A DNA stretch of 64,000 bases from a candidate division WOR-3 bacterium (GCA_025060695.1 JANXBH010000005.1:23276-87275); one strand, 5' to 3'; positions 5,350 to 62,652 are shown, numbered from the stretch's first letter. Notes: generated by a model from the sequence alone, not told the origin. Made by a program: numbers and translations.

Positions 5350-5423
<74 letters not shown>

Positions 5424-8074: not shown

Positions 8075-8078
8075 GTGT

Positions 8079-8465: not shown

Positions 8466-8480
8466 GCCCCTTTGGGGCTT
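8464..8480 (+). terminator. GC-rich hairpin between rplL and rpoB (attenuator/partial terminator candidate)
   Basis: AAGCCCC-TTT-GGGGCTT forms a 7-bp stem overlapping the rplL stop. No U-tract follows. The position matches the known rplL-rpoB attenuator of other bacteria. Confidence 0.45.
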
Positions 8481-8502
8481 AAATAAACTCAATGGGGGCT
8501 TT

Positions 8503-11500
8503 ATGGTAGTAAGAATAGGTTATAAAAAAGAACTTTATGAAATGCCCGATTTATTAACTGTTCAATTAGAATCTTATAAGAATTTTCTTCAAGAGGATAT
8601 TCCACCTAGTGAAAGGACATCAGAAAGCTTACATGGATTATTTAACGAAATATTCCCCATAATTGACTTGCAAGGCAGATATAGACTAGAATACATAAGT
8701 TATAGAATAGAAAAGCCCAAATATACGCCTGATGAATGCATACAAAAGAACTTAACCTATTCTGTGCCTATATTCTTAAAAATTCGTCTAAAGAAAATAA
8801 GACCTCAAACTAATGTTATAGAAAATGAAATAGAACAAGAAATATACTTTGGTGATATACCTTATATGACACCTAAAGGAACATTTATTATAAATGGTGT
8901 AGAAAGAGTTGTTTTAAGTCAAATACATAGAGCGCCTGGGGTATATTTTACAATTCAGGAAAAAGAAACTGAAGTATATACTGCTTTACTTGTCCCATAT
9001 AGGGGACCATGGATAGCTTTTACTATTGATGGTTCTAAAGTTATAAGCATGACGGTATCTAAAAGAAGAAAAATACCTGTTAGTAGATTTTTAAGGATTT
9101 TGGGGTATGAAGATTATAGGTCGATAATCAGTAATTTCTTGAAGGTAGAGGAGTTTTCTATAGATGATGAAAGATTATTAAGTGGTAATTACATTTTAGC
9201 TGATGATGTAGTAAGCGAAGAAACAGGAGAGTTGATATTTCAGATTGTGACTGAAAAAGGAGAATTTGTAAGAAAAGAGATAACTCAAAAATTTATAGAG
9301 GAATTAGAAAAAGAAGGGGTCAAAAAATTAAAAGTTTTAAACATGCAAGATCCTGCTACTGAAGCAATGATAACCACATTTAGACAAGATAGAATAAAAG
9401 ATGCACAAAAATCCCTTGCTAATATTTATAGAGTTTTAAAATACACTCAACCTAAAAGTCTTCAGGATGCGAAATTTGCAGTAGAAGATTTTTTCTTTTC
9501 TGGCACTAAATTGTTCTTAGGTGAAATAGGAAGATATAAGTTAAACCTTAGATTAAAACACGATGATAAAGGTTTTGCTATTCCACCTGAAAATACTTAT
9601 TCATTAACAAGAGAGGATTTTGTAGTTATAGTAAAAAGACTATTAGATTTATATAGAGGGGAAGAAATTGAAGATGACGTAGATGATATTTCAAATCGTA
9701 GAGTTAGGAGAGTTGGTGAAAGATTATATGAACACTTTAGAAACTCATTAATAAGAGCTTCCAAAGCCATAAAGGAAAAGCTATTAACTGAAATGGAAGA
9801 TGTTACTCCAAAAAAGCTATTTAACCCAAGACTAATAACAGCATCTATAAATAACTTCTTTACTACTGATACGCTTTCTCAGTTTCTTGATCAGACTAAT
9901 CCCTTAGCAGAACTAACACATAAAAGAAGAATTTCAGCACTCGGAAAAGGTGGCTTATCGCGTGAAAATGCAGGTATTGAAGTAAGAGACGTTCACCCAT
10001 CTCACTACGGAAGAATTTGCCCTATTGAAACTCCCGAAGGACAGAACATAGGTCTTGTGCTATCACTAACAACATATGCCATGATAGATAATTTTGGATT
10101 TATAAGAACACCACTAAGAAAAGTTAAAAATGGAACTTTAACTAATGAGGTTCTTTATGTTGCACCTTATGAAGAGGTAGACTATAGAATTGCAGGTGCA
10201 GATTTGAAAATCGCAAATGGTAAAATTATTGATAAAAGAATAATTGCAAGACATAAAAGAACATATAAAATTGTTTCTAATAAAGATGTAGACTATATAG
10301 ATGTATCTCCTAGGCAATTAGTATCACCTTCATCATCTCTTATTCCATTCTTAGAGCATGATGATGCAAATAGAGCTCTTATGGGTTCTAACATGCAAAG
10401 ACAAGCAGTTCCTCTTTTAATACCTGAATCACCAATTGTAGGGACAGGAATGGAGTCTAAAATAGCCAAAGATTCTGGAACGTTAGTTTTAGCAAAAAGA
10501 AGTGGTACAGTATCCTACGTGGACTCCAATAAAGTTATAATAATTCCAGATGAAAAGGAAGATGACTTTTTCGGTATTGATGAATATAAACTTCTAAAGT
10601 TTCAAAGATCAAATCAGAATACTCTTGTTCATCATATTCCTGTTGTAAAAATTGGTCAGAAAATTAAAAAGGGTGATATTATTGCGGAAATGGTAGCGGT
10701 AAAGGATGGAGAATTATCCCTTGGTAAGAATCTACTTGTTGCATTTATTCCTTGGTATGGATATAACTTTGAAGATTCTATAGTGGTTTCGGAAAGATTT
10801 TTAAAAGACGATATATTCACCTCTATACATATTGACAGCTACGAGATAGAAGTTAGGGAAACTAAACTTGGTCCAGAGCAGATAACAAGAGATTTACCGG
10901 GTGTGTATGAAGAAAGCCTTAGAAATCTTGATGAGCATGGAATAGTAAGAATAGGAACTGAAGTAAAGCCAGGAGATATTCTTGTTGGTAAAATTACACC
11001 TGAGGGAGAAAGAGAGCTAACACCGGAGGAAAGACTATTACAAACTATATTTGGTGAAAAAACAAAAGGTTATAGAAATACATCACTAAAAGTCCCACCT
11101 GGAGTTGTAGGAACTGTAGTAGATGTTGTAATTTTAACTAAATACGCGGAAAACGAGTTTTCAAAGAAAATATTAGAAGAAAGAAAAGAGAATGCTAATA
11201 AGAAGTATAAAGAAAGTATTGAAAGAGTAAAGAGTAGACTGATTGAGTTATTAGAAGAAAATCTAAAAGGTATAAAGTTTAAGAAAAATATTTATACCAA
11301 GGATGGAGAATTGGTTTTCAAAACAGGCGAAACCTTCTCGAAAGATAAAGTGGATGATCCACTTAAGTTGGTATTCGCTGATGGTTTTGTCGAAGACAAA
11401 ACCGTTATTTCAAAAATAAATAATTTCTATTCAGGAGCAAAGTCATTTATAAAGTCAATTGAGGATAATTATAAACTGGAGCTCTCGAGGATTGAAAGGG

Positions 11501-15400: not shown

Positions 15401-16571
15401 TGATGGAAAAGAAAAGATTTACGATGTTCCATATGGAAGTGAAATATTCGTAGATGATGGTCAAATAGTGAAAGTTAATGAGAAATTAATAGAATGGGAG
15501 CCATATTCTCTTCCAATATTAACAACTAAAGAAGGAGTGCTTGATTTTGAAGATATTGTTGAAAATATCACATTGAAGGAAGAAGTTGAAGAAGGTAAAA
15601 TTGAATATGTAGTTCAAGTAGTGAGACAAAGAAAACTTTATCCTAAGGTTAATGTAAGAGATCCTAAGACAGGAGAAATATTAGAAGAAATACCATTAGT
15701 TAATGAAGCGAGATTAACCCAAAGAGTATATCAACTATTTAAGCAAGCAAAGCAAATTAAAAACTATAAGGATAGGGAAATAGTAAAAGCTGGTGAAATT
15801 ATTGCAAAACTACCAAAAATTACTGCGAAGACGAGGGATATCACTGGAGGACTTCCAAAGGTTGAAGAGTTATTCGAAGCAAGAGTTCCAAAAAATAAGG
15901 CCATATTAGCTGAAAGGGGAGGACAAGTAGAGATTCTCGGTCTTGAAAGGGGTATATTTAAAGTAAAGGTAGGAGAACAAATTTACGAAGTTCCATATGG
16001 TAGATATTTACTTGTTGGTAGTGGTGAGTATGTAGAGGCGGGTGATCCTCTTACTGATGGCGAAATTGACCCACATGACTTATTAAGAATAAAAGGTAAG
16101 GACTTCGTTCAAGAGTATCTATTTGAGAAAATACAAGGTATTTACAAAATGTCAGATGTTGAAATAAACGATAAACATATTGAGATTATAGTAAGGCAAA
16201 TGCTCAGAAAAGTAAAAATTATATCTTCAGGAACTACTAACTTGTTTGAGGATGACATAGTTGATTATTCCAAGGTTAAAAAAGAAAACGAAAGAGTCAT
16301 AACTGAAGGAGGAAAACCTGCAACCTATATGCATGTTTTACTTGGTATAACAAGAGCTTCGCTATCTACCGATTCATTTATTTCTGCCGCTTCGTTCCAA
16401 GAAACCACAAAAGTATTAGCATTTGCATCTATAGAAGGTAAATCGGACGAATTAAGAGGTTTAAAGGAAAATGTGATTATAGGAGGTCTAATACCTTCAG
16501 GGACGGGTAGAAAGGACCTAAAAGAAATGGCAATTTTGGCTGAAGAAGAAAAAGTAGAAGAAATAGCGTGA
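12426..16571 (+). CDS. rpoC: DNA-directed RNA polymerase subunit beta'
   Basis: 1381 aa. Zn-finger [14 protein letters not shown], catalytic [10 protein letters not shown], bridge and trigger-loop blocks. 4-nt overlap with rpoB. Confidence 0.98.
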
Positions 16572-17587
16572 TACTACTAATAGCAACTTTTTTAGAGAAA
16601 GAAGTTTATTTTCCTTCAATATACTTAATTTTACCTGATAGTGGGGATTTTAGAGTAATATCAGAGGAGTTTTTAAAAGGATTTGACCTTGCTATCCGTG
16701 ATGAATATAAATTTAGTATAATTGACGAAGACCCTGATACATCAATAGACTTTTCTGTTATTTATGAAAACATTGTAAATAAACATCCTAAAATCGTGGT
16801 TGGACCTATATTACCAAAACATCAAAGAATCTCTGCGGAAATTTCTATGAGAAAGAAAGTTATTCAAATCATACCTATAACATATGACCTCTATCTTGGA
16901 ACTTATGGAAATTACGTTTATCCATTCAATTACAAAATTTATATGTCAATAGAATCACTCTTGGATTATACCTTTAAGAAAGGTGATAGTAATGTGGTTT
17001 TACTTTACGAGAATACAACAAATGGTTTTTCTATAAAAAAATTCATAGATACGAAATATGATATTCCGACAATACCTATAAAAAATACCAAGATTTCAAA
17101 GGAGTATATAGCTGAACTGATAAAAGATCTAAAAAATTATGACGCTCTAATATTTTCAGATGGAGGAATTAATTCAGTAAATATTTACCTGAGTTTAAGA
17201 AAGAATGGATATAGTAAAGATGTATATGTATTTGATAGTTGGCTGTCGTTTGATATATTTCCGATGATCATAGGTTTGTCAGAAAATCTATATATCTTAT
17301 CCCTCAAGAGTATAAGTTATGCAAGCTATTTACTAAAGCTTGATAGAAAATACAAATTCATAGAAAATTACAGAAAGTTGTATAATTCAGAACCTACAAT
17401 AGCTTCCCAAATAGGATATGATACAGGAGTTTTAGTAAAGCAAGCTCTAAAGTCTGAAGATATAAAGAGTTTTCTTCTGAAGTATGGAATTTTAAGTGGT
17501 ATTAATGGAGATTATTTAATATCTAAAAATCCTGAGTATATAAAGATCTTTAAAATTTCAGGAGGTGGTTTAGAGGAGGTAAAGTAA
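16568..17587 (+). CDS. hypothetical protein with type-1 periplasmic-binding-protein-like (LivK/LpoA-like) features
   Basis: GTG start overlapping the rpoC stop (GTGA). The block [29 protein letters not shown] resembles the PBP type-1 pattern VIGP..S.....A........P.I.P. This is a weak call made by eye. Confidence 0.35.
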
Positions 17588-19611: not shown

Positions 19612-19685
19612 AGCCTGCGGGCGGATTTGAACCGCCGACCTCTTCCTTACCAAGGAAGCGCTCTAACCTCCTGAGCTACGCAGGC
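19612..19685 (-). tRNA. trnT: tRNA-Thr (anticodon GGT), no encoded 3' CCA
   Basis: The reverse complement reads GCCTGCGTAGCTCAGGAGGTTAGAGCGCTTCCTTGGTAAGGAAGAGGTCGGCGGTTCAAATCCGCCCGCAGGCT. Acceptor GCCTGCG/CGCAGGC, anticodon loop TTGGTAA, T-loop GGTTCAAATCC. Confidence 0.9.
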
Positions 19686-28226: not shown

Positions 28227-28931
28227 TTAAAATCCTATTCCTATACTATTTGAATTTCCTAAAAATGGATGAGTTTTAAATTGATAACCAACTCTCGTTA
28301 AATTTGTATAAACGATAATACCTGCGTTAAATGTGGTATTTGCGGTATTATAACCTAAAATGAGATTTATATTTCTGTGAAGTTTAATTAAAGATGAAAT
28401 CATATACGATAGTGGATAACTCTCCTCAAGTAGAGCGTCTATAAAAATATCGTAATTTTTTGCGGAGTATCTAAATGAAAGTATACCAGCATTTCTTCCT
28501 TCATTTCCTGCATATAAAGCACTTGCGGAAAACCAAAACGGTTCTATATATCTGTAAAATCCAATAATACCTCTTAAATAGAGTTTAGTTTCTTCTTTTC
28601 CTGATTCATTTATTATCTCTTGTGGTTCTAAATTTAGACCTATACCTAAGTTTCTATAACCTATACCTATTGCAAGAAGGTGTTCTGAAAATTCTTCTGC
28701 TCTTATAGAATACCAGCCAAGCCCTAAATTATAAAACTGCATTCCAAAGAAATATCTATTTATTATATTTGAAAAATCGGAACTATATGAAAATTCAAAA
28801 GATAACTTTTTTCCGAGAAGCTGAGGGCTATATAAAACGGCTTCAGGTCTAAAAAAAGTAGATAGGATGTTTGAGGAAACTGAAAAAGGTGATGGTAAAA
28901 ATGGTGATATGAAACTTAATATTACTAACAT
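28227..28931 (-). CDS. hypothetical outer-membrane beta-barrel-like protein
   Basis: Alternating hydrophobic pattern, Gly/Tyr-rich, C-terminal ..SIGIGF ending in Phe as in many outer-membrane proteins. Confidence 0.35.
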   Translation of the reverse strand: MLVILSFISPFLPSPFSVSSNILSTFFRPEAVLYSPQLLGKKLSFEFSYSSDFSNIINRYFFGMQFYNLGLGWYSIRAEEFSEHLLAIGIGYRNLGIGLNLEPQEIINESGKEETKLYLRGIIGFYRYIEPFWFSASALYAGNEGRNAGILSFRYSAKNYDIFIDALLEESYPLSYMISSLIKLHRNINLILGYNTANTTFNAGIIVYTNLTRVGYQFKTHPFLGNSNSIGIGF

Positions 28932-31030: not shown

Positions 31031-34000
31031 ATGTTATATATTCTCACTTTTTTTGAAGTTTTAAAGAATAATCCAGATGAATTTGAATTTTTGTTTGAAA
31101 TACCAGAAGTTTATAATCCTACAATTTACTCTTATAAAATTGCTATTCCTCCAGATGGTTACTACGAAATTTCCTACGAAGTTTTAAATTATTCAAAGTT
31201 AAACTATAGTGATATTTTAAATTTATCGAGCGATAAAGTTTTTGAAGTTAATAGAAAAAATGCGATAGATTTGGAATACATTGAACTAAAAATTAATCCA
31301 TACTATAAAGTAAATGATGAACTATATATTAGAAACAAAATTAAATTCAGAGTAAAGTTCTACTTATCTGAAAGTAAAAAAGTAGGTGATTATTTACCAC
31401 ACCATAGAGAATTTATAAATTTTCCATTTCCTAAAAGTTGGATAAAAAAGAAAGTACTTTCAACTCCTCCAGACTTCTTTTCTATGGCTCAATTTTGGAT
31501 TAAGATAAAAATAAAAGAAAGAGGTGTTTATAAAATATCCGCTGCCGATTTAATAAATTTAGGCATTTTGCAAGAATACTTAACAATAAACAGAATTTCC
31601 TTATTCGCAAAAATTGACACTTTCAATAGTTCGTTAATTTATGCGGATAGTTTAATAAAACAAGTTTCAATTCATGTATATGATGAAAATGGTGATGGTA
31701 TTTTAAATCAAAATGATTATATTTTATTTTTTGGAGAAGGTTCTGAGGGTTTCAGAAACTACAATAATTCAATAGTTTTCTATAGAAATCCATATGATGT
31801 TTATAGTTATTACATACTTGGAATAAACTCAAATATTCCTCCAAAGTTTATGACAATAACCAATTTTAATTATGGTCAAACTATTTACTCAACTGGTATG
31901 TATAGGCATGATAGTGATTTGATTAATACAGGCAAAAAAGGAAGAATTTGGCTTGGTGAGGAAATAAAGTATAGTAATAGCTTTAATTTCAATTTAGAAG
32001 GTATTGTTTCAAATACTGGAAGTTTGACTTTGTCAATAGTAGGTGCTGAGCCATTAGCTCCCAATGAATGCGGAAACGGAAAATTGCAGATTGTACTAAA
32101 TAACCAGGAATTAGACAATAACTTTATAGTTTTTGATGTTCAAAGAACTACAAAAAGCTATAATATTTCAAATTTACAATATTCTAATAATATTTCTATA
32201 AACGTATTATCTTCAAATTGTTCAAATCCAAGATTTTATTTAGACTATTTTGAAGTTAGATATACAAGAAATATACCTGAGGAGGGTAGTGTATATTTCC
32301 AAACTACCGCATCTGCAAGAATTACAAATAATGCTCTTATGGTTTTAGATATTACAAATTTATACGAACCTGTAATTTTAAATAATTTTTCAGATAATGT
32401 AGTGCCTAATAAAATATACTTCATATCAAAAACTTATTTAAAACCGCTAAGTATTGAAATTATAAATATAACTGAAAACTTGTATAGTCTAAGTAATGTT
32501 GAGTATATTATAATAGGACCAAATGATTGGTTTAATTCTATAAATAATTACATTGAATTCAGAAAAAGATATTTTCCAACTATATGTGGCGTAAATTTTT
32601 GTATAGATTCTACGGGTTTTCATAATGTAAAGTATATTTCAATTGAAAATGTATTTGAGCAATTTGGTTTTGGTATGAAAGACCCTGTTGCTATAAGAAA
32701 TTTTCTATATACATTATATAGGAATTCTCAAAATTTACTATATGGCTTATTATTAGGCGATGCAACTTATGATTATAGAAATATTCTTCAAAAAGGTGGA
32801 AATATTCTTCCCGTTTACTACGATTTTAATGAAAGTTTTGATATAAATCTTTCATTTGCCGGTTCATTTGATGACTTTTATTTTGATTTTAGTGGAGATA
32901 GGTATGCGGATATAAACTATGCAAGGTTTCCTGCAAGAGATAAATCAGAAGTTTTTAACTATTTTAAAAAAGTAATAGACTACGAATTAAATAGATTTTT
33001 TTCTGACTGGAAAAATAGATTATTGCTCGTAGCGGATGATTTTTCTAATCCATACCCATGTGAAAGTTCATGGCATTTGCTTCCTTCTGACAATATTCAA
33101 AAATTCTATATACCTAAAAATGTCATAGTTCATCATTTATATATGCACGAATATCCATTAGAAGGTGGAAGAAAACCTACCGCTAATAGAGATTTTATTG
33201 ATAGATTCAATAATGGCTATCTATTAATTAATATATTCTCTCATGGAAATCCCTCTCAAATAGCAAGTGAAATGCTACTTTCACTAATGGACGTTCAAAA
33301 GTTAAATGCATATAATAAGCCTCCATTTGTATTGATTTTAAGTTGCAAAACTAATGTCTTTGATAGATTGGATGGAGATTTAGCAGGACCTAAAGGACTT
33401 GGAGAATATTTAGTTACTTACACTGGTGGAGCTATTGGTGTTCTCTCTTCGACAGCCCTTTCATTTGTAGGAGCTAATGTAGCTTATGCACAGCAAATAT
33501 TTTCTGCATTAAAAACTAATAGACCTTATCCTATGGGATATATATCTAAACTTGGGAAAAATAACTGGTATTATGTTCTCTTTGGTGATCCATCGGTTAT
33601 GATAGGTTATCCAGACACTAATAGTAATTTATCTTTTCCTGATAGTGCCTTCGTAGGTGCTTTATACAAAGGTTCATTTTTGGAAACGAAAAACTATAGT
33701 GTTAGCATTAGCTTAATCCCATCTACAAGGGTGGTGGTAGATGCAACATGTTCTCCACCTCAAAGTTATAATATATTAGAACCTCATAGAATTTTATATA
33801 GAGCCTATATTAATACTGATTCCTTGAAAGTATTTATCCCAAAGGATTTAAATCCAAATAGAAAATTACAACTAAGGGGCGTTTATGCTTATTCTAACAA
33901 GTTTAAGGATTCTATAAGTTTAGGTTTTAAAGCTGAACTAATTGAACAAGATAATGAAGGTCCAAAGTTAAAATTATTGTATTATTTAAAGGAAGTTTTT

Positions 34001-34570
34001 GATAGTTCTAAATTTACACCAAAAGTAAGATTAACTCTATGGGCAAGTGATGAACATGGTATATATTTAAGTCCAGGTTATAGAGATGTAGAAATTTATA
34101 TAGATGACGTGGAGGTTATAAAACTTACCGATAAATTTATCTATGAACCTAATAGTTTTACAACTGGTAGTGCGGATTTTGAATTGGACTTTTCAAATAA
34201 TCAAGGTTGGCATAAATTAACACTTAGAGCATTTGATAACTACAATAACTTTTCTACTAAAGACTACTATCTAAACTTTTCAGACGAAAATATTTCAGTA
34301 TACGATTTACTTGTATATCCAAATCCTTATAAAAAAGGTCCTTTTTATATTACATTTAATTCAAATAGTCAAGCTAACGCCCAATTTAAAATTTACACTT
34401 TAAATAGTAATTTAATATATGCAAGTTCAAGATATACCATAAATCCAGGTTTTAATGTTTTAAAATTAGAGAATCTGGATATAGGAAGTGGTTTATATAT
34501 TTTGGTCTTAGAATTAAAGAAGGAAAACCGAAGTTTAAAAGTAAGGAAAAAATTTGCTGTTGTTAAGTAA
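31031..34570 (+). CDS. PorU-like C25 (gingipain-family) cysteine peptidase with T9SS-type C-terminal domain; candidate T9SS sortase
   Basis: 1179 aa, the size range of PorU. Clan-CD-like dyad context NIFSHGNPSQ (His-Gly) and FVLILSCKTNVFD (Cys). LLLGDATYDYRN block. C-terminus LLVYPNPYKKGPFYITF..FKIYTLNSNLIY..GLYILVLE. Confidence 0.6.
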   Translation: MLYILTFFEVLKNNPDEFEFLFEIPEVYNPTIYSYKIAIPPDGYYEISYEVLNYSKLNYSDILNLSSDKVFEVNRKNAIDLEYIELKINPYYKVNDELYIRNKIKFRVKFYLSESKKVGDYLPHHREFINFPFPKSWIKKKVLSTPPDFFSMAQFWIKIKIKERGVYKISAADLINLGILQEYLTINRISLFAKIDTFNSSLIYADSLIKQVSIHVYDENGDGILNQNDYILFFGEGSEGFRNYNNSIVFYRNPYDVYSYYILGINSNIPPKFMTITNFNYGQTIYSTGMYRHDSDLINTGKKGRIWLGEEIKYSNSFNFNLEGIVSNTGSLTLSIVGAEPLAPNECGNGKLQIVLNNQELDNNFIVFDVQRTTKSYNISNLQYSNNISINVLSSNCSNPRFYLDYFEVRYTRNIPEEGSVYFQTTASARITNNALMVLDITNLYEPVILNNFSDNVVPNKIYFISKTYLKPLSIEIINITENLYSLSNVEYIIIGPNDWFNSINNYIEFRKRYFPTICGVNFCIDSTGFHNVKYISIENVFEQFGFGMKDPVAIRNFLYTLYRNSQNLLYGLLLGDATYDYRNILQKGGNILPVYYDFNESFDINLSFAGSFDDFYFDFSGDRYADINYARFPARDKSEVFNYFKKVIDYELNRFFSDWKNRLLLVADDFSNPYPCESSWHLLPSDNIQKFYIPKNVIVHHLYMHEYPLEGGRKPTANRDFIDRFNNGYLLINIFSHGNPSQIASEMLLSLMDVQKLNAYNKPPFVLILSCKTNVFDRLDGDLAGPKGLGEYLVTYTGGAIGVLSSTALSFVGANVAYAQQIFSALKTNRPYPMGYISKLGKNNWYYVLFGDPSVMIGYPDTNSNLSFPDSAFVGALYKGSFLETKNYSVSISLIPSTRVVVDATCSPPQSYNILEPHRILYRAYINTDSLKVFIPKDLNPNRKLQLRGVYAYSNKFKDSISLGFKAELIEQDNEGPKLKLLYYLKEVFDSSKFTPKVRLTLWASDEHGIYLSPGYRDVEIYIDDVEVIKLTDKFIYEPNSFTTGSADFELDFSNNQGWHKLTLRAFDNYNNFSTKDYYLNFSDENISVYDLLVYPNPYKKGPFYITFNSNSQANAQFKIYTLNSNLIYASSRYTINPGFNVLKLENLDIGSGLYILVLELKKENRSLKVRKKFAVVK

Positions 34571-37392: not shown

Positions 37393-38393
37393 TTGGTGAT
37401 ACGAACTTAATAAGAGTTTCTAAAGACCCAAACTTTGAAATAAATAGCCTTGTAAAGGAATTTTTAAATAAAGGTTATCCATTTACTACGTTTAATTTAA
37501 TAAAAATAGGCAAAATTCAAGATACCATAGTAATTGAATACAGTTTTACTAAAGGTGCGATTTATATAGTAAAATCAATTAAATTTTCAGATTATTACTC
37601 AAAGAAATTTGTCTATCAAAGATTTTTAAATAACTTCAAAAATTCCATTTTAGACTTTCAGAATATTAGCAAAACTATAAATAGTCTTGATAATTTTTAT
37701 AAATTAGAAACTCAACTAACTATAGAAAAGGAGTATTTAGTTCTTAAGAATAAAAAAATACCTTTTGAAGGTTATGGAGGGCTTACGATTTCAGATACTC
37801 AGATAAATGGGAACGTTAGTCTAAGATTTGATTTTTTAAAATTCATCTATAGTAAAAATTTCAAGAACATTGGTCTTGAATTTCCATTTCCTATAAAATT
37901 TCCAAATAATTTCGGTTTTTCCTATTATAGTATTTTAGAAGATAAAAACTTTGAAGTATATGCAAATATTTCTGGATACATTATGGGTTATAGACTTTAT
38001 AACGATAAATTGGGTATTTTTGGAGCTTATAGTAAGCATAGTATTTATTTAAGATTAGATGCGTTGAATTTTTTTTATAAATTATTTTTCAACTATGAAA
38101 ACAAATTTTTAAACTTGCAGTTTTCTATAAACCAAATTGATAAAAATGTAATAGGTGGTTCTCATAGTATTTTGGGTTATCTTGACAATTCCATTATTTG
38201 TAATAACTACTTGTTCTTAACTTTTAGAACGAACTTAAATTTTTTCTTACCAGTTTTTCAAATATATTGGATTGACAAAAGTAAAATGCTGTATTCCTAT
38301 GGATTGGGTATAGGTAATGAAAGTTTTGGTATATATTTTATTATAAATGGTAGGGAAAACAAGCCCTACCTTCACTTTCTAATTAAAAGTTAA
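37365..38393 (+). CDS. hypothetical protein, possible POTRA-like N-terminus plus beta-barrel (Omp85/FhaC-like?)
   Basis: LNKGYPFTTFNLIKIGKIQDTIVIEYSFTKGAIYIVKSIKF resembles a POTRA unit. The remainder is Tyr/Phe/Gly-rich with alternating strands. Weak call. Confidence 0.3.
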   Translation: MEGIFILKIVGDTNLIRVSKDPNFEINSLVKEFLNKGYPFTTFNLIKIGKIQDTIVIEYSFTKGAIYIVKSIKFSDYYSKKFVYQRFLNNFKNSILDFQNISKTINSLDNFYKLETQLTIEKEYLVLKNKKIPFEGYGGLTISDTQINGNVSLRFDFLKFIYSKNFKNIGLEFPFPIKFPNNFGFSYYSILEDKNFEVYANISGYIMGYRLYNDKLGIFGAYSKHSIYLRLDALNFFYKLFFNYENKFLNLQFSINQIDKNVIGGSHSILGYLDNSIICNNYLFLTFRTNLNFFLPVFQIYWIDKSKMLYSYGLGIGNESFGIYFIINGRENKPYLHFLIKS

Positions 38394-39975
38394 TTTCTCT
38401 ATAAATCCAAAATCTTGCTAAAAAGCTTCCAGCATCAGCCTTTGAATAATTTACAATTTGTCCACCGATATTCGTAACGTCTCCTGTTAATAGTCCTACC
38501 TTTTGCAATGCTGCTAAAGAAGTTGGTCTTATCCAGCCATATTTTAATCTATTTCCAGGTATGAAATATCCTATTATAAATCCTAAATCAGCCACTTCTG
38601 CATACCTAAATCTGAGAGACAGGTCAAATTCATAGCCTAAATCTAGTGCATATGCTTGATCTGGCTCTATAGGAAACTTTGTGCTATCTACTGTAATGTA
38701 TTCTTTTTCGGGACCCCAATATTCCCAATAACCAAGAAAGTCAAATCTTGCCTTCAATGAGTGAAAAATTGTGTATGGAACTGCTTCAAGATATACATTT
38801 ATAATTCTGAGATCTGACATTACACTTGCAAATATATCCCTGTATAAGCCGGGTTTCATACCCCAAGTGAATATTTCACCAATACCACTCCACTTACTCC
38901 AATTGCTATTTAATGATAATTCACCTCTTAAAGATGGAGCAAACCAACCTTCATAGACATCGTTTGTATTACCATTGTCACCTTGAAAACTTGTATAACT
39001 AATACCCATTCCAAATGTTTCACTAGCAATATATTTTGCATCAATTGTAAATGCTAACGAGTTAAACCTATAACCTTGACATTCTTGGTTTAAATTAGGA
39101 TCGCAGTTTCTAATAATAGTATATAGCTTATCAGGAAGATCATTGTATACTGGTTTTACCGCATCCCATCTTCCAAACATATAACCTATTTCACCTCTTA
39201 TATTAAACTTTCTAAATGGACCTACATCTATATATAGTCCTGTCCAAAATGGATTAAAACCGGGTGATATAGCTCTGTCTTCAGCAAGTGCCAAAAAGTA
39301 TATGTTAAATGCGTATGGTTGATCTGTTCTTTTTAGTTTTCTTAAGACTATACCATAGTTTTCTAAGTCATATTTTGTGTATATCCAATAGTACCATTTT
39401 GTATTCTCTGTATTTATAGCAACAGGAAAGTAGAACCAATCTTCCTGATTACCTCCTCCCTCTGAAATTTTAGTATATACGAAATCTAAATAAACTTCTT
39501 GATTTTCATTTGGTCTTAGAAATATACCGAATGTATTATATCCTTGCCCATAGAAGTCTGAAAACAGAAGACCTAAACCATAATTTCTTACCATTCTTCC
39601 ACCTGCTATTACTGCTTTTGTCCCAAACGGCCAATTTAGAGTATCTGTCATTACAAAGGCTTCACTTATAAAAGGGAAATTCTTCTTAGAAAATCCAGAC
39701 CACAATCCCCACCAAGTAAGTCCAAGTCCTATAGTAAATATATCATTTACTCTTATACGAGCATTTAGTCTTGCATAACCTGCTTGGAACATTTCGTTTT
39801 CCGCACTCGCAGCAGTAGCTGTTAGATCTGGAATGTGAGAAGTTACATATACATTAGTGGCAAGAACTTCTCCGTAGAACCTTGCATCAATCACATCACC
39901 TTCTCTAAAGAGTTCAACTTGTGCCCAACTTACTGAAAAGAGACTTAAAATAAGAAAAATCTTACGCATCATCAT
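38383..39975 (-). CDS. outer-membrane beta-barrel/porin-like protein
   Basis: Canonical signal peptide MMMRKIFLILSLFSVSWAQ, aromatic-girdle-rich sequence, C-terminal ..IYREINF. Confidence 0.4.
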   Translation of the reverse strand: MMMRKIFLILSLFSVSWAQVELFREGDVIDARFYGEVLATNVYVTSHIPDLTATAASAENEMFQAGYARLNARIRVNDIFTIGLGLTWWGLWSGFSKKNFPFISEAFVMTDTLNWPFGTKAVIAGGRMVRNYGLGLLFSDFYGQGYNTFGIFLRPNENQEVYLDFVYTKISEGGGNQEDWFYFPVAINTENTKWYYWIYTKYDLENYGIVLRKLKRTDQPYAFNIYFLALAEDRAISPGFNPFWTGLYIDVGPFRKFNIRGEIGYMFGRWDAVKPVYNDLPDKLYTIIRNCDPNLNQECQGYRFNSLAFTIDAKYIASETFGMGISYTSFQGDNGNTNDVYEGWFAPSLRGELSLNSNWSKWSGIGEIFTWGMKPGLYRDIFASVMSDLRIINVYLEAVPYTIFHSLKARFDFLGYWEYWGPEKEYITVDSTKFPIEPDQAYALDLGYEFDLSLRFRYAEVADLGFIIGYFIPGNRLKYGWIRPTSLAALQKVGLLTGDVTNIGGQIVNYSKADAGSFLARFWIYREINF

Positions 39976-57364: not shown

Positions 57365-58039
57365 ATGAGTATACTTGAAGTAAAAAATCTTAGCGTAATT
57401 TTGGGTAATAAGGAAATATTGAAAGATATTAGCTTTTCGCTAAATGAAGGTGAAATACTACTTGTAATTGGTCCGAATGGGGGAGGAAAGACAACATTAC
57501 TAAAAGCTATACTAAATATTATTCCATACAGTGGAAAAATATATATAAAACAAGGATATAAACTTGGATATGTGCCACAAAATTTAGAGAACGTATCTAA
57601 TTTACCAATATGTGTTTTTGAAATGTTTAAGTTCTTTACAAATGCAAGTAGTAAAAAAGTAGAGGAAATTATGGAGTTTTTTAAGTTAAGGGAATATAAA
57701 GATGAGTTATTTAAAAATCTTTCAGGTGGTTTAAAGCAAAAAGTTCTAATATCAATCTCAATTTTAAAAGATAGTAAAATACTACTTTTAGATGAACCTA
57801 CAAATAATCTTGATGTAAGTGCACAAAATGAATTTTACAGGCTTATAAAAGAACTAAGAGAGAAATATGGGGTTTCATTTATAATAGTTAGCCATGATAT
57901 TGGGATAGTAAACTCAACTGCTGATAAAATTCTATGTCTAAATAAAGTCATGTATTATCATGGAATTGTAAAAGTAGATGAGGAAATTATAAGAAAGCTA
58001 TATCAAAGTGAAGTGAAAATAATATTACATGATCATTAG
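57365..58039 (+). CDS. metal (Zn/Mn-type) ABC transporter ATP-binding protein
   Basis: Walker A GPNGGGKTT, signature LSGGLKQK, Walker B LLLDEPTNNLD. Paired with an ABC-3 permease. Confidence 0.88.
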   Translation: MSILEVKNLSVILGNKEILKDISFSLNEGEILLVIGPNGGGKTTLLKAILNIIPYSGKIYIKQGYKLGYVPQNLENVSNLPICVFEMFKFFTNASSKKVEEIMEFFKLREYKDELFKNLSGGLKQKVLISISILKDSKILLLDEPTNNLDVSAQNEFYRLIKELREKYGVSFIIVSHDIGIVNSTADKILCLNKVMYYHGIVKVDEEIIRKLYQSEVKIILHDH

Positions 58040-58808
58040 TGCAATAATTTTTGGTAGTATTATTTCTTTGGTTTTAGGTATTTTGTCTTTCTTTGTAGTT
58101 TCAAGAAATTTGGAGTTCGCAGGGACTGGCATTTCACACGCGGTTTTTGGTGGTCTTGCAATAGGTATTCTACTAAATATAAATCCTTTAATTACAGCAA
58201 CAATATTTTCAATAATTTTCTCGTTATTAATTGTGGAAAGTTCAAATAAACAAAATGAAAATACCGCAATAGGTGTTCTATATCCATTTTCCATGGCTAT
58301 TGGAATTTTCATTCTTTCAAAGTTTTCAAAGAACTACCAAGACATTTGGTCATATTTATTTGGAAATATTTTTCTTATTAGTAAGTTTGATTTCTTTGTC
58401 TTTTTAGTTTATTCAGTCGTTATAGTTTTTTTTATTTTATTTCGCTTTAAAGAACTTGTACTTATTGCTTTTCATAAAGAGCTTGCAATTTCCAATGGTA
58501 TAAATGTAAAACTTTATGACTATTTATTTTTTATAGTTCTGTCTATAGGTATAATACTCTCGGTTAAACTGCTTGGAGTTATTTTGTCTACTGCATTTTT
58601 AGTAATTCCCTCAGCTATAAGTTTTAGACTATTTAAGGGTATAATAAAGAATATAGTATTTTCCTGTTTAATCTCATTATCATTCACAGCATTAGGTATA
58701 GTTCTATCCTATCTCTTTGATCTTCCTGTATCCTCTACAATTGTTATTATGGCATCAACTTTATATTTAATTTTAAGCTTGTTTCAACTACGGGGCAAAC
58801 ACTCTTAA
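58029..58808 (+). CDS. ABC-3 family metal transporter permease (ZnuB/TroC-like)
   Basis: Polytopic membrane protein. AGTGISHAVFGGLAIG resembles the ABC-3 D/G-x-ISHA motif. Confidence 0.8.
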   Translation: MIISAIIFGSIISLVLGILSFFVVSRNLEFAGTGISHAVFGGLAIGILLNINPLITATIFSIIFSLLIVESSNKQNENTAIGVLYPFSMAIGIFILSKFSKNYQDIWSYLFGNIFLISKFDFFVFLVYSVVIVFFILFRFKELVLIAFHKELAISNGINVKLYDYLFFIVLSIGIILSVKLLGVILSTAFLVIPSAISFRLFKGIIKNIVFSCLISLSFTALGIVLSYLFDLPVSSTIVIMASTLYLILSLFQLRGKHS

Positions 58809-59945
58809 TGCTCCATTACTATATTTTATAATATAAATTCCTGTCCCTAAACTATTTATATTTAATCTATTTGCTTTAGTTTGAAGTATTTTCCTTCCAG
58901 AAACTTCATAAACCTCTATAAATTCTTCCTTACTAAAGTATATAACTCCATCCTTTACCACATATCTCTCTTGAATAGATACAGGATTTCCAATTATTGC
59001 CTTAATATATCCACTTCCTACATCGTTATTATGATGGGTGTAGTAATAGGAGAAATTGTCAGATTCTCTTAAAACATATATTGCATTTGAACCTCCTGTA
59101 AATCCGCCAAGAGAAAATTTAAAATATTCTCCGTCATAGTCCACTCCGCCAAATCCTCCAAAATTCAACTTAAAGCTATCTATTTGGTTAAAATCGTTCT
59201 TATTGATTTTATATACCTTCACGCTGTCAAATTTCCAAACCCCTGCAAAAATATAGTTATTTCCAACTGCAAATTCGAAAACATTCTCAAGATTTCTTGT
59301 AGAGTCAATAATTGTAAAACTAATAGGTTCTATTTTGTATATAGTCGAGTTATTCTGGGGTTGCCAGTTTACATAAGTTCCAGCGGTCATTACATATACA
59401 AAATTATTATCGCATTTTATGGACTTTGCATTTGAACGAACCCTAATTCTTGTAGTATTATTATTACTTGGGTTAATTCTGTGAACAGAAGAAGTGTCGT
59501 CATAAGAATAATCACTATTTATACCTGTTGACGCTACAAATATATATCCAAAACAATATGCAATACCATCAGGTCTTTTAGATACAGTTATTGAATCCAC
59601 TATGTTGTAGTTTTGAATTATATAAACCTTATTATTGAAAGTATTACCGAAGTCTGTAAAATATAGTTTATTGTTAACTTTTACTATTTGCATAGGGTTC
59701 ATATGGCTTGGGAGAAGTAGTTCGTAAATGATATTATTATTTCTTATAAAAGCTATAGAACCATCTCCTGAAAATCCACCTGAATTTACCACTATGAACG
59801 TGTCATTGGAGATAATAAAGTGATTTGGGACAGGTCTTGTACCAGTGGTAAAACTATCTACTATCTGGTTTTGATATATTGCATATATTCTTTGTGTATT
59901 TTGACCTATTACATATGCACCATACGATATAATTAACCATGTCAT
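58788..59945 (-). CDS. beta-propeller-like protein (about 7 blade-like repeats) with T9SS-type C-terminal domain; third gene of the B12-riboswitch operon
   Basis: About 40-aa repeats (IYAIYQNQIVDSF.., NKVYIIQNYNIVDSI.., STIYKIEPISFTIIDS.., VKVYKINKNDFNQIDS..). C-terminus IEVYEVSGRKILQTKANRLNINSLGTGIYIIKY. SD AAGGAGGT lies 6 nt upstream of the ATG. Confidence 0.5.
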   Translation of the reverse strand: MTWLIISYGAYVIGQNTQRIYAIYQNQIVDSFTTGTRPVPNHFIISNDTFIVVNSGGFSGDGSIAFIRNNNIIYELLLPSHMNPMQIVKVNNKLYFTDFGNTFNNKVYIIQNYNIVDSITVSKRPDGIAYCFGYIFVASTGINSDYSYDDTSSVHRINPSNNNTTRIRVRSNAKSIKCDNNFVYVMTAGTYVNWQPQNNSTIYKIEPISFTIIDSTRNLENVFEFAVGNNYIFAGVWKFDSVKVYKINKNDFNQIDSFKLNFGGFGGVDYDGEYFKFSLGGFTGGSNAIYVLRESDNFSYYYTHHNNDVGSGYIKAIIGNPVSIQERYVVKDGVIYFSKEEFIEVYEVSGRKILQTKANRLNINSLGTGIYIIKYSNGALRVFAP

Positions 59946-61027
59946 CTTCTTACCTCCTTTTTAATAAGTTTATTTTGTCTTACTATAAAAACCCCCCTAT
60001 TTTTAAAATCCTTATAATTTCCATAAAATATCCTCTTGCCATCAATTGTAAATATTTCTACATTTTCATTTTCTACTATCTTCTCCTCTAATTTAACATT
60101 AAATACTTCAATACCATCAACACAGGTATTTTCATCACTTCTGATTGCTAATATTCTTACAGTGTCCGATACACCAAATGGACTTGAAATACTTCTTGAT
60201 TTTAGAGAGTCTATCTCACCAAGTGTATCTGGTCTTGTATTATAGTAGAATGCATTTATAAAGTTAAGTCTTCCATCGCCTCCATATATTCTTACAGGTT
60301 TATTTGAAACTATCTTAAAATCAATACCTTGCTTATTTATTATATTTAAACTTCTAAAAATTAAAACTCCATTTTCACCAATATTTAAGCAATTTCCGTC
60401 CACAAAACTAACCTTATGTTCCCAATTTATAGTATCTCCATTAGTCCCAACCGCATAGATAATACTTGGCATGATATAGTTGTAATTAGAAGTTTGACAA
60501 TTTAAGCAAGCTACCGCATCTAAATCATAGCCACTACATAAATTATGCTTGCACTTACTAATCCAATCCGCTATTATAATAAACCTTACGGTGTCATTAA
60601 ATAAAAATTTATCTCCCATCCATATATTAGGATCATTTACATTGGCTCCATAGTTTGTAGGTTTGATACCACTAAGACCTTTCCAATAGTAAATATTACT
60701 ATTTGATGTATCAAAAGAATACTGAAAGAACAACTTTCCATTCTTTGAATAATATAAAATTCCGGGTTCTGCAAAAACTTGAGTATCTGGGTTTGTAGAG
60801 TATATAAATACATTCTCAAAAGTCCTAATTTCACTTAAAGTAAATTTATTCTTAAATCCAAGCATAATGAAGCCAAATTTACCAAGAGAAAGAACATCAA
60901 GTGAAGGATTAGTTGGAGTTGCACTTGTAGGAGGATTATTATAGACTATATATGGATAATTATTTTGACCATACCACTGACCATCTCCATGTGAAAATAA
61001 ATATATAGTATCTATCCAAGCTACCAT
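59942..61027 (-). CDS. unknown Cys-rich protein with T9SS-CTD-like tail; second gene of the B12-riboswitch operon
   Basis: SD AAGGAGG lies 6 nt upstream of the ATG. Cys cluster CKHNLCSGYDLDAVACLNC. C-terminus VEIFTIDGKRIFYGNYKDFKNRGVFIV. No family recognised. Confidence 0.45.
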   Translation of the reverse strand: MVAWIDTIYLFSHGDGQWYGQNNYPYIVYNNPPTSATPTNPSLDVLSLGKFGFIMLGFKNKFTLSEIRTFENVFIYSTNPDTQVFAEPGILYYSKNGKLFFQYSFDTSNSNIYYWKGLSGIKPTNYGANVNDPNIWMGDKFLFNDTVRFIIIADWISKCKHNLCSGYDLDAVACLNCQTSNYNYIMPSIIYAVGTNGDTINWEHKVSFVDGNCLNIGENGVLIFRSLNIINKQGIDFKIVSNKPVRIYGGDGRLNFINAFYYNTRPDTLGEIDSLKSRSISSPFGVSDTVRILAIRSDENTCVDGIEVFNVKLEEKIVENENVEIFTIDGKRIFYGNYKDFKNRGVFIVRQNKLIKKEVRR

Positions 61028-62445
61028 CTTACGCCTCCTTTTATGTTAATAGAAAAACTCTCCATAGGATATCCAGCTATAAACTCATACGACTTATTTA
61101 AAAGGTTCTTAAAATATAGATAAACAAAAAAGCTTTTAAAATCGAAGAACTTATAGTAATCTATAATTAAAATTGGCTTTAGCTTTTCACTTGAAGGATA
61201 GTAATACCTTGGTCTTGTTGAATAAAACACGAAAGCAATTTCATCCCTTAGGAATTCAGAAAAGTTATAAATGACTTTTGCACTAAGATTTAACTTTGGT
61301 CTATAAGGTAATACTCTATTTTTTGAAAGCTTATTTTCAATGTAGGATGCGGAAATATTTAAAAATCTAAATTTTCCATTCAATTCAATACCATAAAGTA
61401 ATAAGTATTTTTCATTTTTAGCTATCCAATATTCGTTTTCAGGAAGCCAAAGTATAGGATTTTGAATGTATGTTATAAAAGTATTAATAAATAAATAACT
61501 AATTGATGCACTATAGAAGTTTTCAGGGTTTAGGAATTTATCTCCTTTTGCATAGTTTGAACTATAGTAAAGCTCGGAAAAGTTCGGAAGTCTTCTTTTT
61601 ATAGACAAGTCTAAAGTAAAACTCCATAAGTCAAAAGTTTTTGAAAAATTATAGTCATATCTAAAAATACCCTCATCATAAACTAAAGAAATATTAACAA
61701 GGTTTTTTATTGGCACTTTTAATATATGTCTTTGATGTATTTTTTTCATACTTACTACTATGCTCTCAAAATATTTTAGACTTAAGCTATAACTTTCATA
61801 TGGTTTTTCGTGGTTATATTGATAAAACTGATAAGAAAAGTAGAATTTTTTATGTGAAGATAGAAAGCCTCTTACTCTTTCAAAGTCATTTCCCTCATTT
61901 CCATACCCTCTAAGTGGCATACCAAACTTTGCACTATAAAATATTAATTTATAGTCTTTATAATTTACATACCCCCCAAGCTTGTCTTCAAAATTGTTTT
62001 TTCTAAAATACTCTCTATTGAAACTATCCCAATATTTAAAATTGTTCTCATTGTAAGTTCTTTCTATTCCAAAATTCCCATAATTTAGAAATATTGAACT
62101 TTTTCCATAAGAACCAAGAAGTACTCCTAATTCCCTAATCTTAGAAAATTCTAAGCTTATCCTATAGTCATTTAAAAAAACTTGTGAATTTGAAATAAGA
62201 TTTAAAGGTAATACATTAGTATAAAAGAAGCCCCAGATAGGACTATTTAATTTTATGTTTTCTAAATAAATTTCATTTTGCTTGTCTTCAAGTCCTCTAA
62301 TTGATACAACTATTCTATTTGAGAGCTCTCTAAATACTATATTTGAACGAACTCTATATACTTCTCTAAAATCTCCAAACTTATAAACACTATCAATTTT
62401 ATATAAATACCTAAAAGTATCTATCACTACGATAGTATCAAGCAT
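61021..62445 (-). CDS. TonB-dependent-receptor-like outer-membrane barrel (BtuB-like by context), unusually short and lacking a signal peptide
   Basis: N-terminus MLDTIVVID resembles the E. coli BtuB TonB box DTLVVTA. Plug-like RIVVSIRGLEDKQNEIYLENIKLNSP. C-terminus FKNLLNKSYEFIAGYPMESFSINIKGGVRW (aromatic terminus). Directly downstream of the cobalamin riboswitch. Confidence 0.7.
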   Translation of the reverse strand: MLDTIVVIDTFRYLYKIDSVYKFGDFREVYRVRSNIVFRELSNRIVVSIRGLEDKQNEIYLENIKLNSPIWGFFYTNVLPLNLISNSQVFLNDYRISLEFSKIRELGVLLGSYGKSSIFLNYGNFGIERTYNENNFKYWDSFNREYFRKNNFEDKLGGYVNYKDYKLIFYSAKFGMPLRGYGNEGNDFERVRGFLSSHKKFYFSYQFYQYNHEKPYESYSLSLKYFESIVVSMKKIHQRHILKVPIKNLVNISLVYDEGIFRYDYNFSKTFDLWSFTLDLSIKRRLPNFSELYYSSNYAKGDKFLNPENFYSASISYLFINTFITYIQNPILWLPENEYWIAKNEKYLLLYGIELNGKFRFLNISASYIENKLSKNRVLPYRPKLNLSAKVIYNFSEFLRDEIAFVFYSTRPRYYYPSSEKLKPILIIDYYKFFDFKSFFVYLYFKNLLNKSYEFIAGYPMESFSINIKGGVRW

Positions 62446-62460
62446 TATTCTAACTCCTCA

Positions 62461-62484
62461 CCTTCCTGAACCCTAGCAGGAAGG
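62461..62484 (-). promoter_or_regulatory. riboswitch expression-platform hairpin sequestering SD-proximal sequence
   Basis: The minus strand reads CCTTCCTG-CTAGGGTT-CAGGAAGG, a perfect 8-bp stem, immediately followed by TGAGGAG and then 8 nt to the ATG at 62445. Confidence 0.55.
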
Positions 62485-62491
62485 TTTTGAA

Positions 62492-62640
62492 AGCTCGTTA
62501 GCAGGTCTTCCGGCTTAGGGCAATTTTAGCCCTTGGCCTTCCCATCCTTTAAGGACAGTGGCTCTAAGGGCAAACTTACACCCATCACGGCTGCTAGGAC
62601 AGCGTGGGATTTTCACCCAACTTCCCTGTCGCTAACGAGC
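62492..62640 (-). promoter_or_regulatory. cobalamin (B12) riboswitch aptamer
   Basis: The minus strand reads GCTCGTTAGCGACAGGGAAGTTGGGTGAAAATCCCACGCTGTCCTAGCAGCCGTGA..GCCACTGTCC..GGATGGGAAGGC..AAGCCGGAAGACCTGCTAACGAGC. It has a 10-bp P1, the conserved GGGAA/GGTGAAAATCC core, GCCACTG and the B12 box. Confidence 0.9.
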
Positions 62641-62646
62641 AATAAA

Positions 62647-62652
62647 ATTTTA
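62647..62652 (-). promoter_or_regulatory. -10-like TAAAAT, 6 nt upstream of the first P1 nucleotide of the riboswitch
   Basis: TGCTTTAAAATTTTATT|GCTCGTTAGC. Confidence 0.45.

Follow-up and report, generated by a model that had tools for sequence, protein, structure and literature searches.

The DNA considered here, a stretch of 64,000 nt from a candidate division WOR-3 bacterium (GCA_025060695.1, JANXBH010000005.1:23276-87275; hereafter the window), carries on its minus strand a cobalamin riboswitch followed by an operon of three genes. Gene A (61021-62445) encodes 474 amino acids, gene B (59942-61027) encodes 361, and gene C (58788-59945) encodes 385. An earlier reading, made by a model from the sequence alone, had seen three overlapping genes with AGGAGG-type Shine-Dalgarno sequences and had proposed that they form an undescribed surface system for capturing vitamin B12. 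The layout is as that sequence-only reading described it: A and B overlap by 7 nt, B and C overlap by 4 nt, and the ribosome-binding sites (GAGGAG for A, AGGAGG for B and again for C) lie 6-8 nt ahead of each ATG. Our analysis indicates that the operon is probably a self-contained outer-membrane system that captures and imports corrinoids, is repressed by B12, and is related to the BtuB-BtuH-BtuG machinery of Bacteroides.

A cmscan search of the whole window places the aptamer at 62483-62651 (minus strand), where the untruncated RF00174 model is matched from position 1 to 189 of 189 with 87.4 bits and an E-value of 3.4e-20. The gathering score of this model is 31.5 bits, so the riboswitch named in the earlier reading is confirmed with the Rfam model that had been suggested as a check. 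The strings quoted in support of it (the P1 strands, GGGAAG...GGTGAAAATCCCAC, GCCACTG...GGGAAGGC, and AAGCCGGAAGACCTGC) are all found in the sequence. The 3′ end of the aptamer lies 38 nt from the ATG of gene A on the same strand. An expression-platform hairpin, CCUUCCUG / CAGGAAGG with loop CUAGGGUU, occupies positions 62461-62484 (minus strand) directly 5′ of the ribosome-binding site of gene A. That site, GAGGAG, was read directly from the sequence at 62454-62459 (minus strand), 8 nt ahead of the ATG at 62445, and a purine-rich counterpart is present in all six aligned loci. The hairpin is predicted by both minimum-free-energy and centroid folds. Across the six loci, 97.9% of its cells are paired, compensatory changes occur at four of its eight pairs, and the observed covariation was reached by none of 500 shuffles.

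These features bear on how the operon may be controlled. No U-tract terminator was found after the aptamer or the hairpin, and transcription termination was rejected as the mode of control for lack of one there. We infer from the sequence that binding of B12 represses translation of gene A and that genes B and C follow through translational coupling. When intracellular cobalamin is high, the occupied aptamer would stabilize the conserved hairpin next to the ribosome-binding site and block translation of gene A, and this block would extend to the two coupled genes. When B12 is scarce, all three proteins would be produced. The hairpin loop, which has the form C-Y-R-GGG-Y, could make the usual kissing contact with the aptamer.

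The module is conserved within a narrow set of organisms. Close relatives amount to 7-11 clusters per protein among 5.8 billion proteins, and all those that are named belong to candidate division WOR-3. The order riboswitch-A-B-C recurs in GCA_054044325.1 (locus L001), in GCA_039803025.1 (L003), and in a JGI metagenome (L005), as well as in a more distant WOR-3 clade represented by GCA_054023595.1 (L006/L007/L008) and GCA_015494735.1 (L009/L010). In every locus that reaches into upstream DNA (L001, L003, L005, L006, and L009), RF00174 scores 68-89 bits. In all, at least six other WOR-3 loci share the order; five further loci hold the riboswitch together with A-B-C, and the gene order, whose conservation the earlier reading had asked to be surveyed, is kept beside B12 riboswitches in relatives. 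The flanking genes are dissimilar among the window, L001, L003, L005, and the distant clade, and the module therefore travels as a unit; loci L006-L011 of the distant clade have a common downstream flank, that of L009 being the same as that of L006. Ratios of nonsynonymous to synonymous substitution rates (dN/dS), computed from three genomes with dS near saturation, are 0.10-0.31 for the three genes and 0.15-0.18 for gene A, so all three genes are under purifying selection. Pseudogenization was rejected on the same values. Searched as single sequences, none of the three proteins has a significant match in Pfam, NCBIfam, or the sequences of the PDB.

Gene A is, judging by profile, Pfam, and Foldseek comparisons and by an AlphaFold 2 (AF2) model, a miniature TonB-dependent transporter of the BtuB type. 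A profile of the gene A family, searched against PDB sequences, has matches at E < 0.01 only to 8p97_A and 8p98_A, the B. thetaiotaomicron BtuB3 protein (E 1.3e-5); this profile includes two distant homologues, and an earlier one built without them had no PDB match. It also aligns weakly, at 8.7 bits, to the BtuB3 plug. The window protein itself has no direct match to PF00593, and its homologue at L009 scores 28.6 bits on that family against a cut-off of 27. The AF2 model of A has a mean predicted local distance difference test score (pLDDT) of 63, with 70-90 in the barrel, which comprises about 22 strands across residues 125-472 joined by very short connections. All 50 Foldseek matches listed for this model are TonB-dependent transporters; among them, B. 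thetaiotaomicron BtuB1 ranks first (8blw_A, E 1.5e-9) and E. coli BtuB stands at ranks 3 and 10-11. With a homologue that passes PF00593 and these structural matches, the first gene can be accepted as the TonB-dependent-type barrel that had been predicted.

Both ends of the protein fit this assignment. By motif inspection the N-terminus, MLDTIVVID, resembles a TonB box; homologues in the distant clade have EVVVV or EVVVS, and the box of E. coli BtuB is DTLVVTA. The C-terminus, ...NLLNKSYEFIAGYPMESFSINIKGGVRW, finishes in GGVRW with a terminal aromatic residue, and ...KGGVRW is kept throughout the window clade and in the homologue P0007. The motif IRGLEDKQN...NP.WG is invariant. Compared with the BtuB proteins of solved structure, protein A is shorter by about 120-240 residues. 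According to the model and to the insertions in the alignment with BtuB3, the shortfall appears to lie mainly in the external loops.

Gene B had been reported as a Cys-rich protein that could not be assigned to any family. The description as Cys-rich is overstated, since the protein has six cysteines in 361 residues. Four of them (C159, C164, C174, and C177) are invariant. They form a C-x4-C-x9-C-x2-C motif (KCKHNLCSGYDLDAVACLNC) at residues 159-177, window positions 60497-60553 (minus strand), which brackets the sequence GYDLDA; the motif is unchanged in 10 of 10 B homologues, is absent from the wider domain family described below, and could provide two disulfides or a metal site. Three regions can be distinguished in the protein: a compact domain at residues ~4-185 (60473-61018, minus strand) with the motifs HGDGQW, SLGxFG, FENVF, AEPG, and GYDLDA, defined by profile and hhalign comparisons; a lineage-specific middle region at residues ~186-300 (60128-60472, minus strand) seen in WOR-3 proteins only; and a short tail resembling the C-terminal domains (CTDs) of type IX secretion system (T9SS) cargo at residues ~301-361 plus the stop codon (59942-60127, minus strand), recognized by hhalign and MAFFT.

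On profile evidence, the first of these regions is distantly homologous to the N-terminal half of the domain with which BtuH binds B12. Protein B itself has no match in Pfam, NCBIfam, or PDB. Among PDB chains, the single relevant match of the domain profile is to residues 431-497 of 8blw_B (E 6e-4 and 1.8e-3). This chain is BtuG1/BT1490, and the matched stretch belongs to its C-terminal extension, a B12 binder described as "homologous to the BtuH2 protein" (PMC10404256). For a closer comparison, a BtuH reference alignment was made from 58 fetched BtuH-domain loci; its profile matches BtuG1 at 1e-132 and BtuH2 (7BIZ) at 1.2e-81 and therefore represents BtuH. Against this reference the domain family aligns with an hhalign probability of 98.1-98.2% (E 1e-13 to 4e-14, 107-108 columns), and the ten WOR-3 B proteins alone align with a probability of 93.8% (E 1.7e-7). 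An assignment of B to the BtuJ/DUF4465 jelly-roll proteins was rejected, as there was no profile match to them and the BtuH signal was strong. The second protein can thus be placed.

The alignment also reaches the ligand site. Residues of BtuH2 that touch B12 or its metal site include Q333/F334, N399/F401, and E406 (PMC13616437), in a numbering in which the 7BIZ chain index plus 100 gives the UniProt position. In B, Q333/F334 (PAPGQF) correspond to Q17/W18 (HGDGQW), N399/F401 (GNAF) to N72/F74 (FENVF), and E406 (EPG) to E87 (AEPG). BtuH residues S582/E584 are not conserved in B. The middle region has a beta-rich AF2 model (pLDDT 50-78) and a weak hhalign match to the domain family (probability 70%, 32 columns), and is possibly a degenerate second copy of the domain. 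The nearest relative of B outside the module, P0029 (494 aa, from a Logan assembly), has two tandem BtuH-like domains and a T9SS-like tail, an arrangement that fits the weak sign of a decayed second copy in B.

Gene C had been predicted to encode about seven blade-like repeats and to be an analogue of BtuG. Its model, from an AF2 run on concatenated B and C with a block-wise alignment, is a confident one: pLDDT is mostly 80-95, and 28 strands form seven four-stranded blades with a 3+1 closure. The propeller, supported by AF2, Foldseek, and hhalign, spans residues ~7-319 (58989-59927, minus strand). In a Foldseek search of 350,542 PDB chains, which gave 945 matches at E ≤ 0.001, rank 1 is 1L0Q, an archaeal protein with a YVTN propeller and a PKD domain. 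Ranks 2-13, 15, 17, 19, and 20 are BtuG structures (BT2095/BtuG3, BT1954/BtuG2, BtuG1, and 3DSM), most of them with cobalamin bound. The structural comparison with BtuG that had been suggested for the 385-aa protein thus returns BtuG1, BtuG2, and BtuG3 at ranks 2-13, with template modelling (TM) scores of 0.65-0.73 and root-mean-square deviations of mostly ~4 Å (3.8-5.6). By hhalign, C matches DUF5074-like propellers linked to riboswitches in environmental sequences (probability 94.8%, E 4.8e-8), and these in turn match the BtuG1 propeller (probability 100%, E 1e-47); B. thetaiotaomicron BtuG1 is a member of PF16819 (DUF5074). The BtuG ranks and this profile link through DUF5074 propellers go further than the analogy first proposed, and C is best read, from its model and its profiles, as a very divergent homologue of BtuG.

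Both partner proteins carry tails of the kind that directs proteins to type IX secretion. In C the tail covers residues ~328-385 plus the stop codon (58788-58964, minus strand), was identified by hidden Markov model and hhalign comparisons as a probable T9SS type A C-terminal sorting domain, and is modelled as a small beta-sandwich. It scores 20.2 bits on PF18962 (E 7e-4, cut-off 27) and 19.9 bits on TIGR04183 (cut-off 23), and the homologue P0027 reaches 27.5 bits on PF18962. With hhalign, the C tails match genuine T9SS CTDs at a probability of 96.5% (E 7e-10), and the tail of B matches that of C at 96.5% (E 8e-10). The match of the B tail to genuine CTDs is weaker (81%, E 1.2e-5), MAFFT also aligns it with them, and it has no direct Pfam match. 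The T9SS-CTD-like tails proposed for both proteins are therefore supported by homologues and by profile comparison, while the window proteins themselves stay below the Pfam and NCBIfam cut-offs. The N-terminus of C, MTWLIISYGAYVIGQNT, has no cysteine and no lipobox and begins with MTWLIISYGAYVIG followed by Q. The earlier view that C is held by a sorting domain in place of a lipid agrees with its missing lipobox and T9SS-type tail, which would anchor it in this way.

Genes that point to this pathway occur in the lineage. A PorV gene adjoins it in the related genome at L003, and the window encodes a 948-aa cargo protein whose T9SS sorting tail scores 33.6 bits, together with a C25 peptidase. 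Four other proteins of the window, at 400-3246 (+), 31031-34570 (+), 16568-17587 (+), and 28227-28931 (−), start with only 7-10 uncharged hydrophobic residues (MFLVLTLN, MLYILTFF, MILLIATF, and MLVILSF). The first two are the 948-aa T9SS cargo protein and the C25 peptidase, which is of the gingipain family; the others are a periplasmic binding protein and what is probably a small outer-membrane protein, with ...IGIGF at its C-terminus. Since all of these should be exported, unusually short leaders seem to be typical of the organism. Normal signal peptides are present on other window proteins, for example at 38383-39975 (MMMRKIFLILSLFSVSWAQ).

Taken together, these assignments suggest how the system would work. 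Protein A, a minimal TonB-dependent barrel of 22 predicted strands with very short external loops, would move the corrinoid through the outer membrane. Protein C would capture the corrinoid on one face of its propeller and probably sits on A as a lid. Protein B, by way of its compact BtuH-like domain, may be an additional surface binder that passes the corrinoid on. Both B and C would reach the surface by way of the type IX secretion system, using their C-terminal sorting tails.

Several observations weigh against this interpretation. PF16819 has no match on C or its homologues at E-values up to 1, and direct hhalign comparison of C with Bacteroides BtuG1 gives a probability of 34%. The plug domain PF07715 is matched by A at E 0.19 (12.7 bits against a cut-off of 23.9) and by its homologues at 13-14 bits, and in the model of A the first 95 residues have pLDDT values below 50 and the plug below 30. 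Residues 1-186 of B are modelled with pLDDT below 35 from an alignment of ten sequences; because this model failed, the link to BtuH is drawn from sequence profiles, over about 105 columns. B also has no counterpart of the ~100 BtuH residues that carry Y475/H476, Y510, D522, and W577. Finally, A and B of the window clade have no canonical signal peptide and start exactly at the TonB-box-like motif (MLDTIVV) and at the domain start (MVAWIDT), with an in-frame TGA stop five codons upstream of A. The missing leaders are the main reason for caution.

These starts, with no hydrophobic leader, raise the question of whether the module in the window clade is a decaying or relocated remnant in which A and B have become cytoplasmic after losing their signal peptides, the more so because the distant WOR-3 clade keeps short leaders of 8-12 residues ending before glutamine (MYAFSLLIAG before Q; MSWILLIAF). 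We find this barely credible, given that all three genes are under purifying selection and intact in every genome seen, that the riboswitch is fully conserved, and that other window proteins that must be exported also have just 7-10 hydrophobic residues. A different doubt concerns the cargo. It is established that cobalamin riboswitches also govern cobalt transporters and B12-independent isoenzymes, and a B12-regulated operon might serve to import cobalt, nothing but a corrinoid precursor, or a nutrient of another kind for which demand varies with B12 status, its folds shared with the B12 proteins but its ligands not. B lacks half of the BtuH binding site, and transporters of siderophores, zinc, and copper appear among the fold matches of A with comparable E-values. 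We nevertheless judge such a cargo highly improbable, as three independent components each point specifically to B12 machinery: the sole PDB sequence match of A is BtuB3, the top fold matches of C are mostly cobalamin-bound BtuG, and B keeps the Q/aromatic, N/F, and E residues of BtuH. In addition, 25 of 31 loci of the wider family stand behind B12 riboswitches with the same partner genes.

The remaining alternative leaves the ligand as proposed and changes the location of the partners. After export and cleavage of the tail, B and/or C could be released as soluble "corrinophores", by analogy with haemophores, collect B12 away from the cell, and feed the small barrel A. T9SS type A tails are known to fit release and attachment alike, the model of A has almost no external loops with which to hold a stable lid, the tail of B is short and atypical, and in Bacteroides itself BtuH is not stably associated with BtuBG (PMC10404256). 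Against this, the nearest structures of C are the BtuG proteins, which form stable lids on BtuB, and the tight translational coupling of A-B-C, whose reading frames overlap by 7 and 4 nt, points to a stoichiometric complex. On balance, release appears unlikely, and we favor a B12-repressed outer-membrane system in which C and B act at the surface next to A.

The domain at the N-terminus of B extends far beyond WOR-3. A profile search of 1.84 billion representative proteins gave 933 clusters at E ≤ 1e-3, and almost all of the matches listed cover only residues ~4-185 of B. No Pfam model exists for this family. A typical member, of ~300 residues in total, consists of a signal peptide, the domain, and a T9SS sorting tail; others are lipoproteins, including "cell surface protein" entries of Myxococcus xanthus (P0037 cluster, WP_140800104.1 and others). 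In some proteins the domain follows a YncE/DUF5074 propeller, as in the fusions P0030 and P0040. The sole curated relative is NCBIfam NF033170, the Leptospira LIC_13355 lipoproteins, which is matched below its cut-off at E 1e-9 to 3e-8 by members that include the WOR-3 B homologue P0013. Judging by the title of one paper (PMC11891782), LIC_13355 has reportedly been examined for binding activities, and no literature linking the LIC_13355/NF033170 family to B12 turned up.

Metagenomes were scanned for loci of this family with a 9-sequence subset of its 47-sequence alignment, which returned 80 loci. A same-strand RF00174 match lies 0.1-5.6 kb upstream in 25 of the 31 loci with enough upstream DNA. 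The surrounding genes encode TonB-dependent transporters (plug and barrel), DUF5074 propellers, and other T9SS cargo, and one of the DUF5074 propellers, at L105, also bears a T9SS sorting tail. Thus, neither propellers nor BtuH-like proteins that combine a T9SS tail with a B12 riboswitch are confined to WOR-3. We regard it as a real possibility, short of a probable one, that the ~185-aa domain defines a large unannotated corrinoid-binding family ("mini-BtuH", at least 933 clusters at 50% identity) that occurs in many phyla and whose partner in WOR-3 is the smallest TonB-dependent transporter yet seen, with T9SS-delivered proteins that would functionally replace its missing loops. The contexts of the domain range from T9SS cargo and lipoproteins to propeller fusions and a putative fusion to a TonB-dependent transporter.

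Some individual loci of this survey deserve mention. At L116, positions 7859-10735 form a single open reading frame of 958 aa directly 3′ of a cobalamin riboswitch, with a plug at residues 330-419 and a barrel at 557-922. The tblastn coordinates place a BtuH-like domain at its N-terminus, and a local hidden Markov model search with the domain profile did not confirm it. Such N-terminal extensions of TonB-dependent transporters usually face the periplasm, an unexpected place for a domain that captures ligand at the surface. Cobalamin riboswitches at L108 (4341-7325) and L111 (6504-9365), and also at L109 and L138, are followed by large proteins of 850-1000 aa that have a BtuH-like domain in mid-protein; those at L108 and L111 contain calcium-binding thrombospondin type 3 repeats too. 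BtuH-domain proteins from Phycisphaerae (Planctomycetota; L063-L069), with the motifs ALGPP, LDFIVFGNAFF, and WAECGVVEVS and a long extra insertion, seem to bridge Bacteroides BtuH and the compact family; they show that BtuH-type domains also occur outside Bacteroidota and a few Firmicutes. The riboswitches at L095 (7758-7881), L116 (7719-7848), L121 (6237-6358), and L147 (4622-4804) match only RF00174 positions ~45-169, with 49-90 bits. These compact aptamers have no peripheral elements at either the 5′ or the 3′ side, and their riboswitch class may not be that of the full-length WOR-3 examples.

In the window itself, which has an overall G+C content of 29.9%, the other Rfam matches are two tRNA genes only, at 5350-5423 (+) and 19612-19685 (−). 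Genes for an ABC ATPase and an ABC-3 (Zn/Mn-type) permease at 57365-58808 (+) run convergently toward the module. FecCD is also matched by the permease, at 27 bits, and the last 21 nt of its gene are shared with the 3′ end of gene C, which is read from the other strand. This transporter was rejected as the inner-membrane partner of the system on three grounds: its ABC-3 type, its location on the other strand, and its absence beside the module in other genomes.

Few microbes make vitamin B12 and most need it; the way in which cells capture it therefore shapes communities. Descriptions of the lipoprotein-assisted BtuBG(H) mechanism are, to our knowledge, confined to gut Bacteroidota. In the WOR-3 operon the three building blocks would recur in a lineage that is deep-branching, uncultured, and of thermophile type, with a barrel ~20-30% smaller than known BtuB proteins, and the operon may thus provide structural and mechanistic studies with a natural "minimal" version. 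A family of ~1000 clusters now labelled "hypothetical" or "cell surface protein" would gain a testable function, corrinoid binding, and a route is suggested for finding B12-scavenging genes in metagenomes. If the mini-BtuH assignment is true, surface or secreted B12 scavenging of the BtuG/BtuH type would be a widespread environmental strategy and not a speciality of gut Bacteroides.

How much of this is new depends on the comparison with Bacteroides. In the loci 1-3 of B. thetaiotaomicron (8BLW, 8BM0, 8P97, and 8P98), as here, a riboswitch precedes a BtuB-type transporter and a seven-bladed propeller. The BtuB-BtuG core plus BtuH are the parts that the WOR-3 module matches (PMC10404256, PMC8941943, PMC13616437). 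In a survey of a panel of gut strains, BtuG was reported from Bacteroidetes and no other group (PMC6143338). With B assigned as BtuH-like, the part list corresponds to that of Bacteroides. The "undescribed system" of the sequence-only reading is therefore one whose parts, BtuB, BtuH, and BtuG, were already described there, and its "extra unknown partner" is a protein with a BtuH-homologous domain. What appears to be new is the T9SS tail in place of a lipid, the WOR-3 phylum, the very small barrel, and the compact BtuH-like domain; no paper was found that connects T9SS to BtuG or BtuH in the uptake of B12, or that describes cobalamin uptake in WOR-3.

The differences between the two systems are nonetheless substantial. 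Protein A has 474 residues and minimal external loops, whereas Bacteroides BtuB has ~620-710, and A therefore probably has no long EL8 "spring" loop. Unlike Bacteroides BtuG, C has neither a lipobox nor a lipoprotein export signal, ends in a T9SS-type sorting domain, and lies outside the reach of a direct PF16819 search; in general, the proteins of the module have diverged too far in sequence for curated models to recognize them. More generally, the Bacteroides partner proteins are held by an N-terminal lipid, and B and C have T9SS-type tails instead. Protein B is homologous to the BtuH domain (BtuH2/BT1956, 7BIZ; BtuH1/BT1488; the H domain of BtuG1/BT1490) over ~105 columns and is likewise encoded beside btuB-like and btuG-like genes, and the propeller fusions of the wider family, P0030 and P0040, resemble BtuG1 in combining a propeller with a BtuH-like domain. 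It is useful to note that a 2026 review (PMC13616437, section 5.1/5.3) places the BtuH domain of BT1490 N-terminal to the propeller; our profile match, at residues 363-662 of 663, is C-terminal, in agreement with the 2023 structure paper (PMC10404256; 8BLW chain B). The domain of B differs from BtuH in its length of ~185 rather than ~290 aa and in ending in GYDLDA and not GEVSTEV. B also has no PKD domains or lipid anchor, carries a T9SS-like tail, and contains a WOR-3-specific four-cysteine cluster and an extra middle region.

Two further comparisons place the module among more distant systems. With E. coli BtuB (1NQE), the WOR-3 transporter shares a 22-strand barrel (by model in the case of A), a cobalamin riboswitch, and a TonB box of the DT[IL]VV type. 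The E. coli protein works alone and, besides a normal signal peptide, has long calcium-stabilized loops with which it binds B12. Protein A, ~120 residues shorter, is accompanied by two partner proteins. With the NF033170 proteins of Leptospira and the Myxococcus "cell surface protein" entries, the module shares the ~185-aa domain of B, but those proteins, unlike B, are lipoproteins with no known link to B12.

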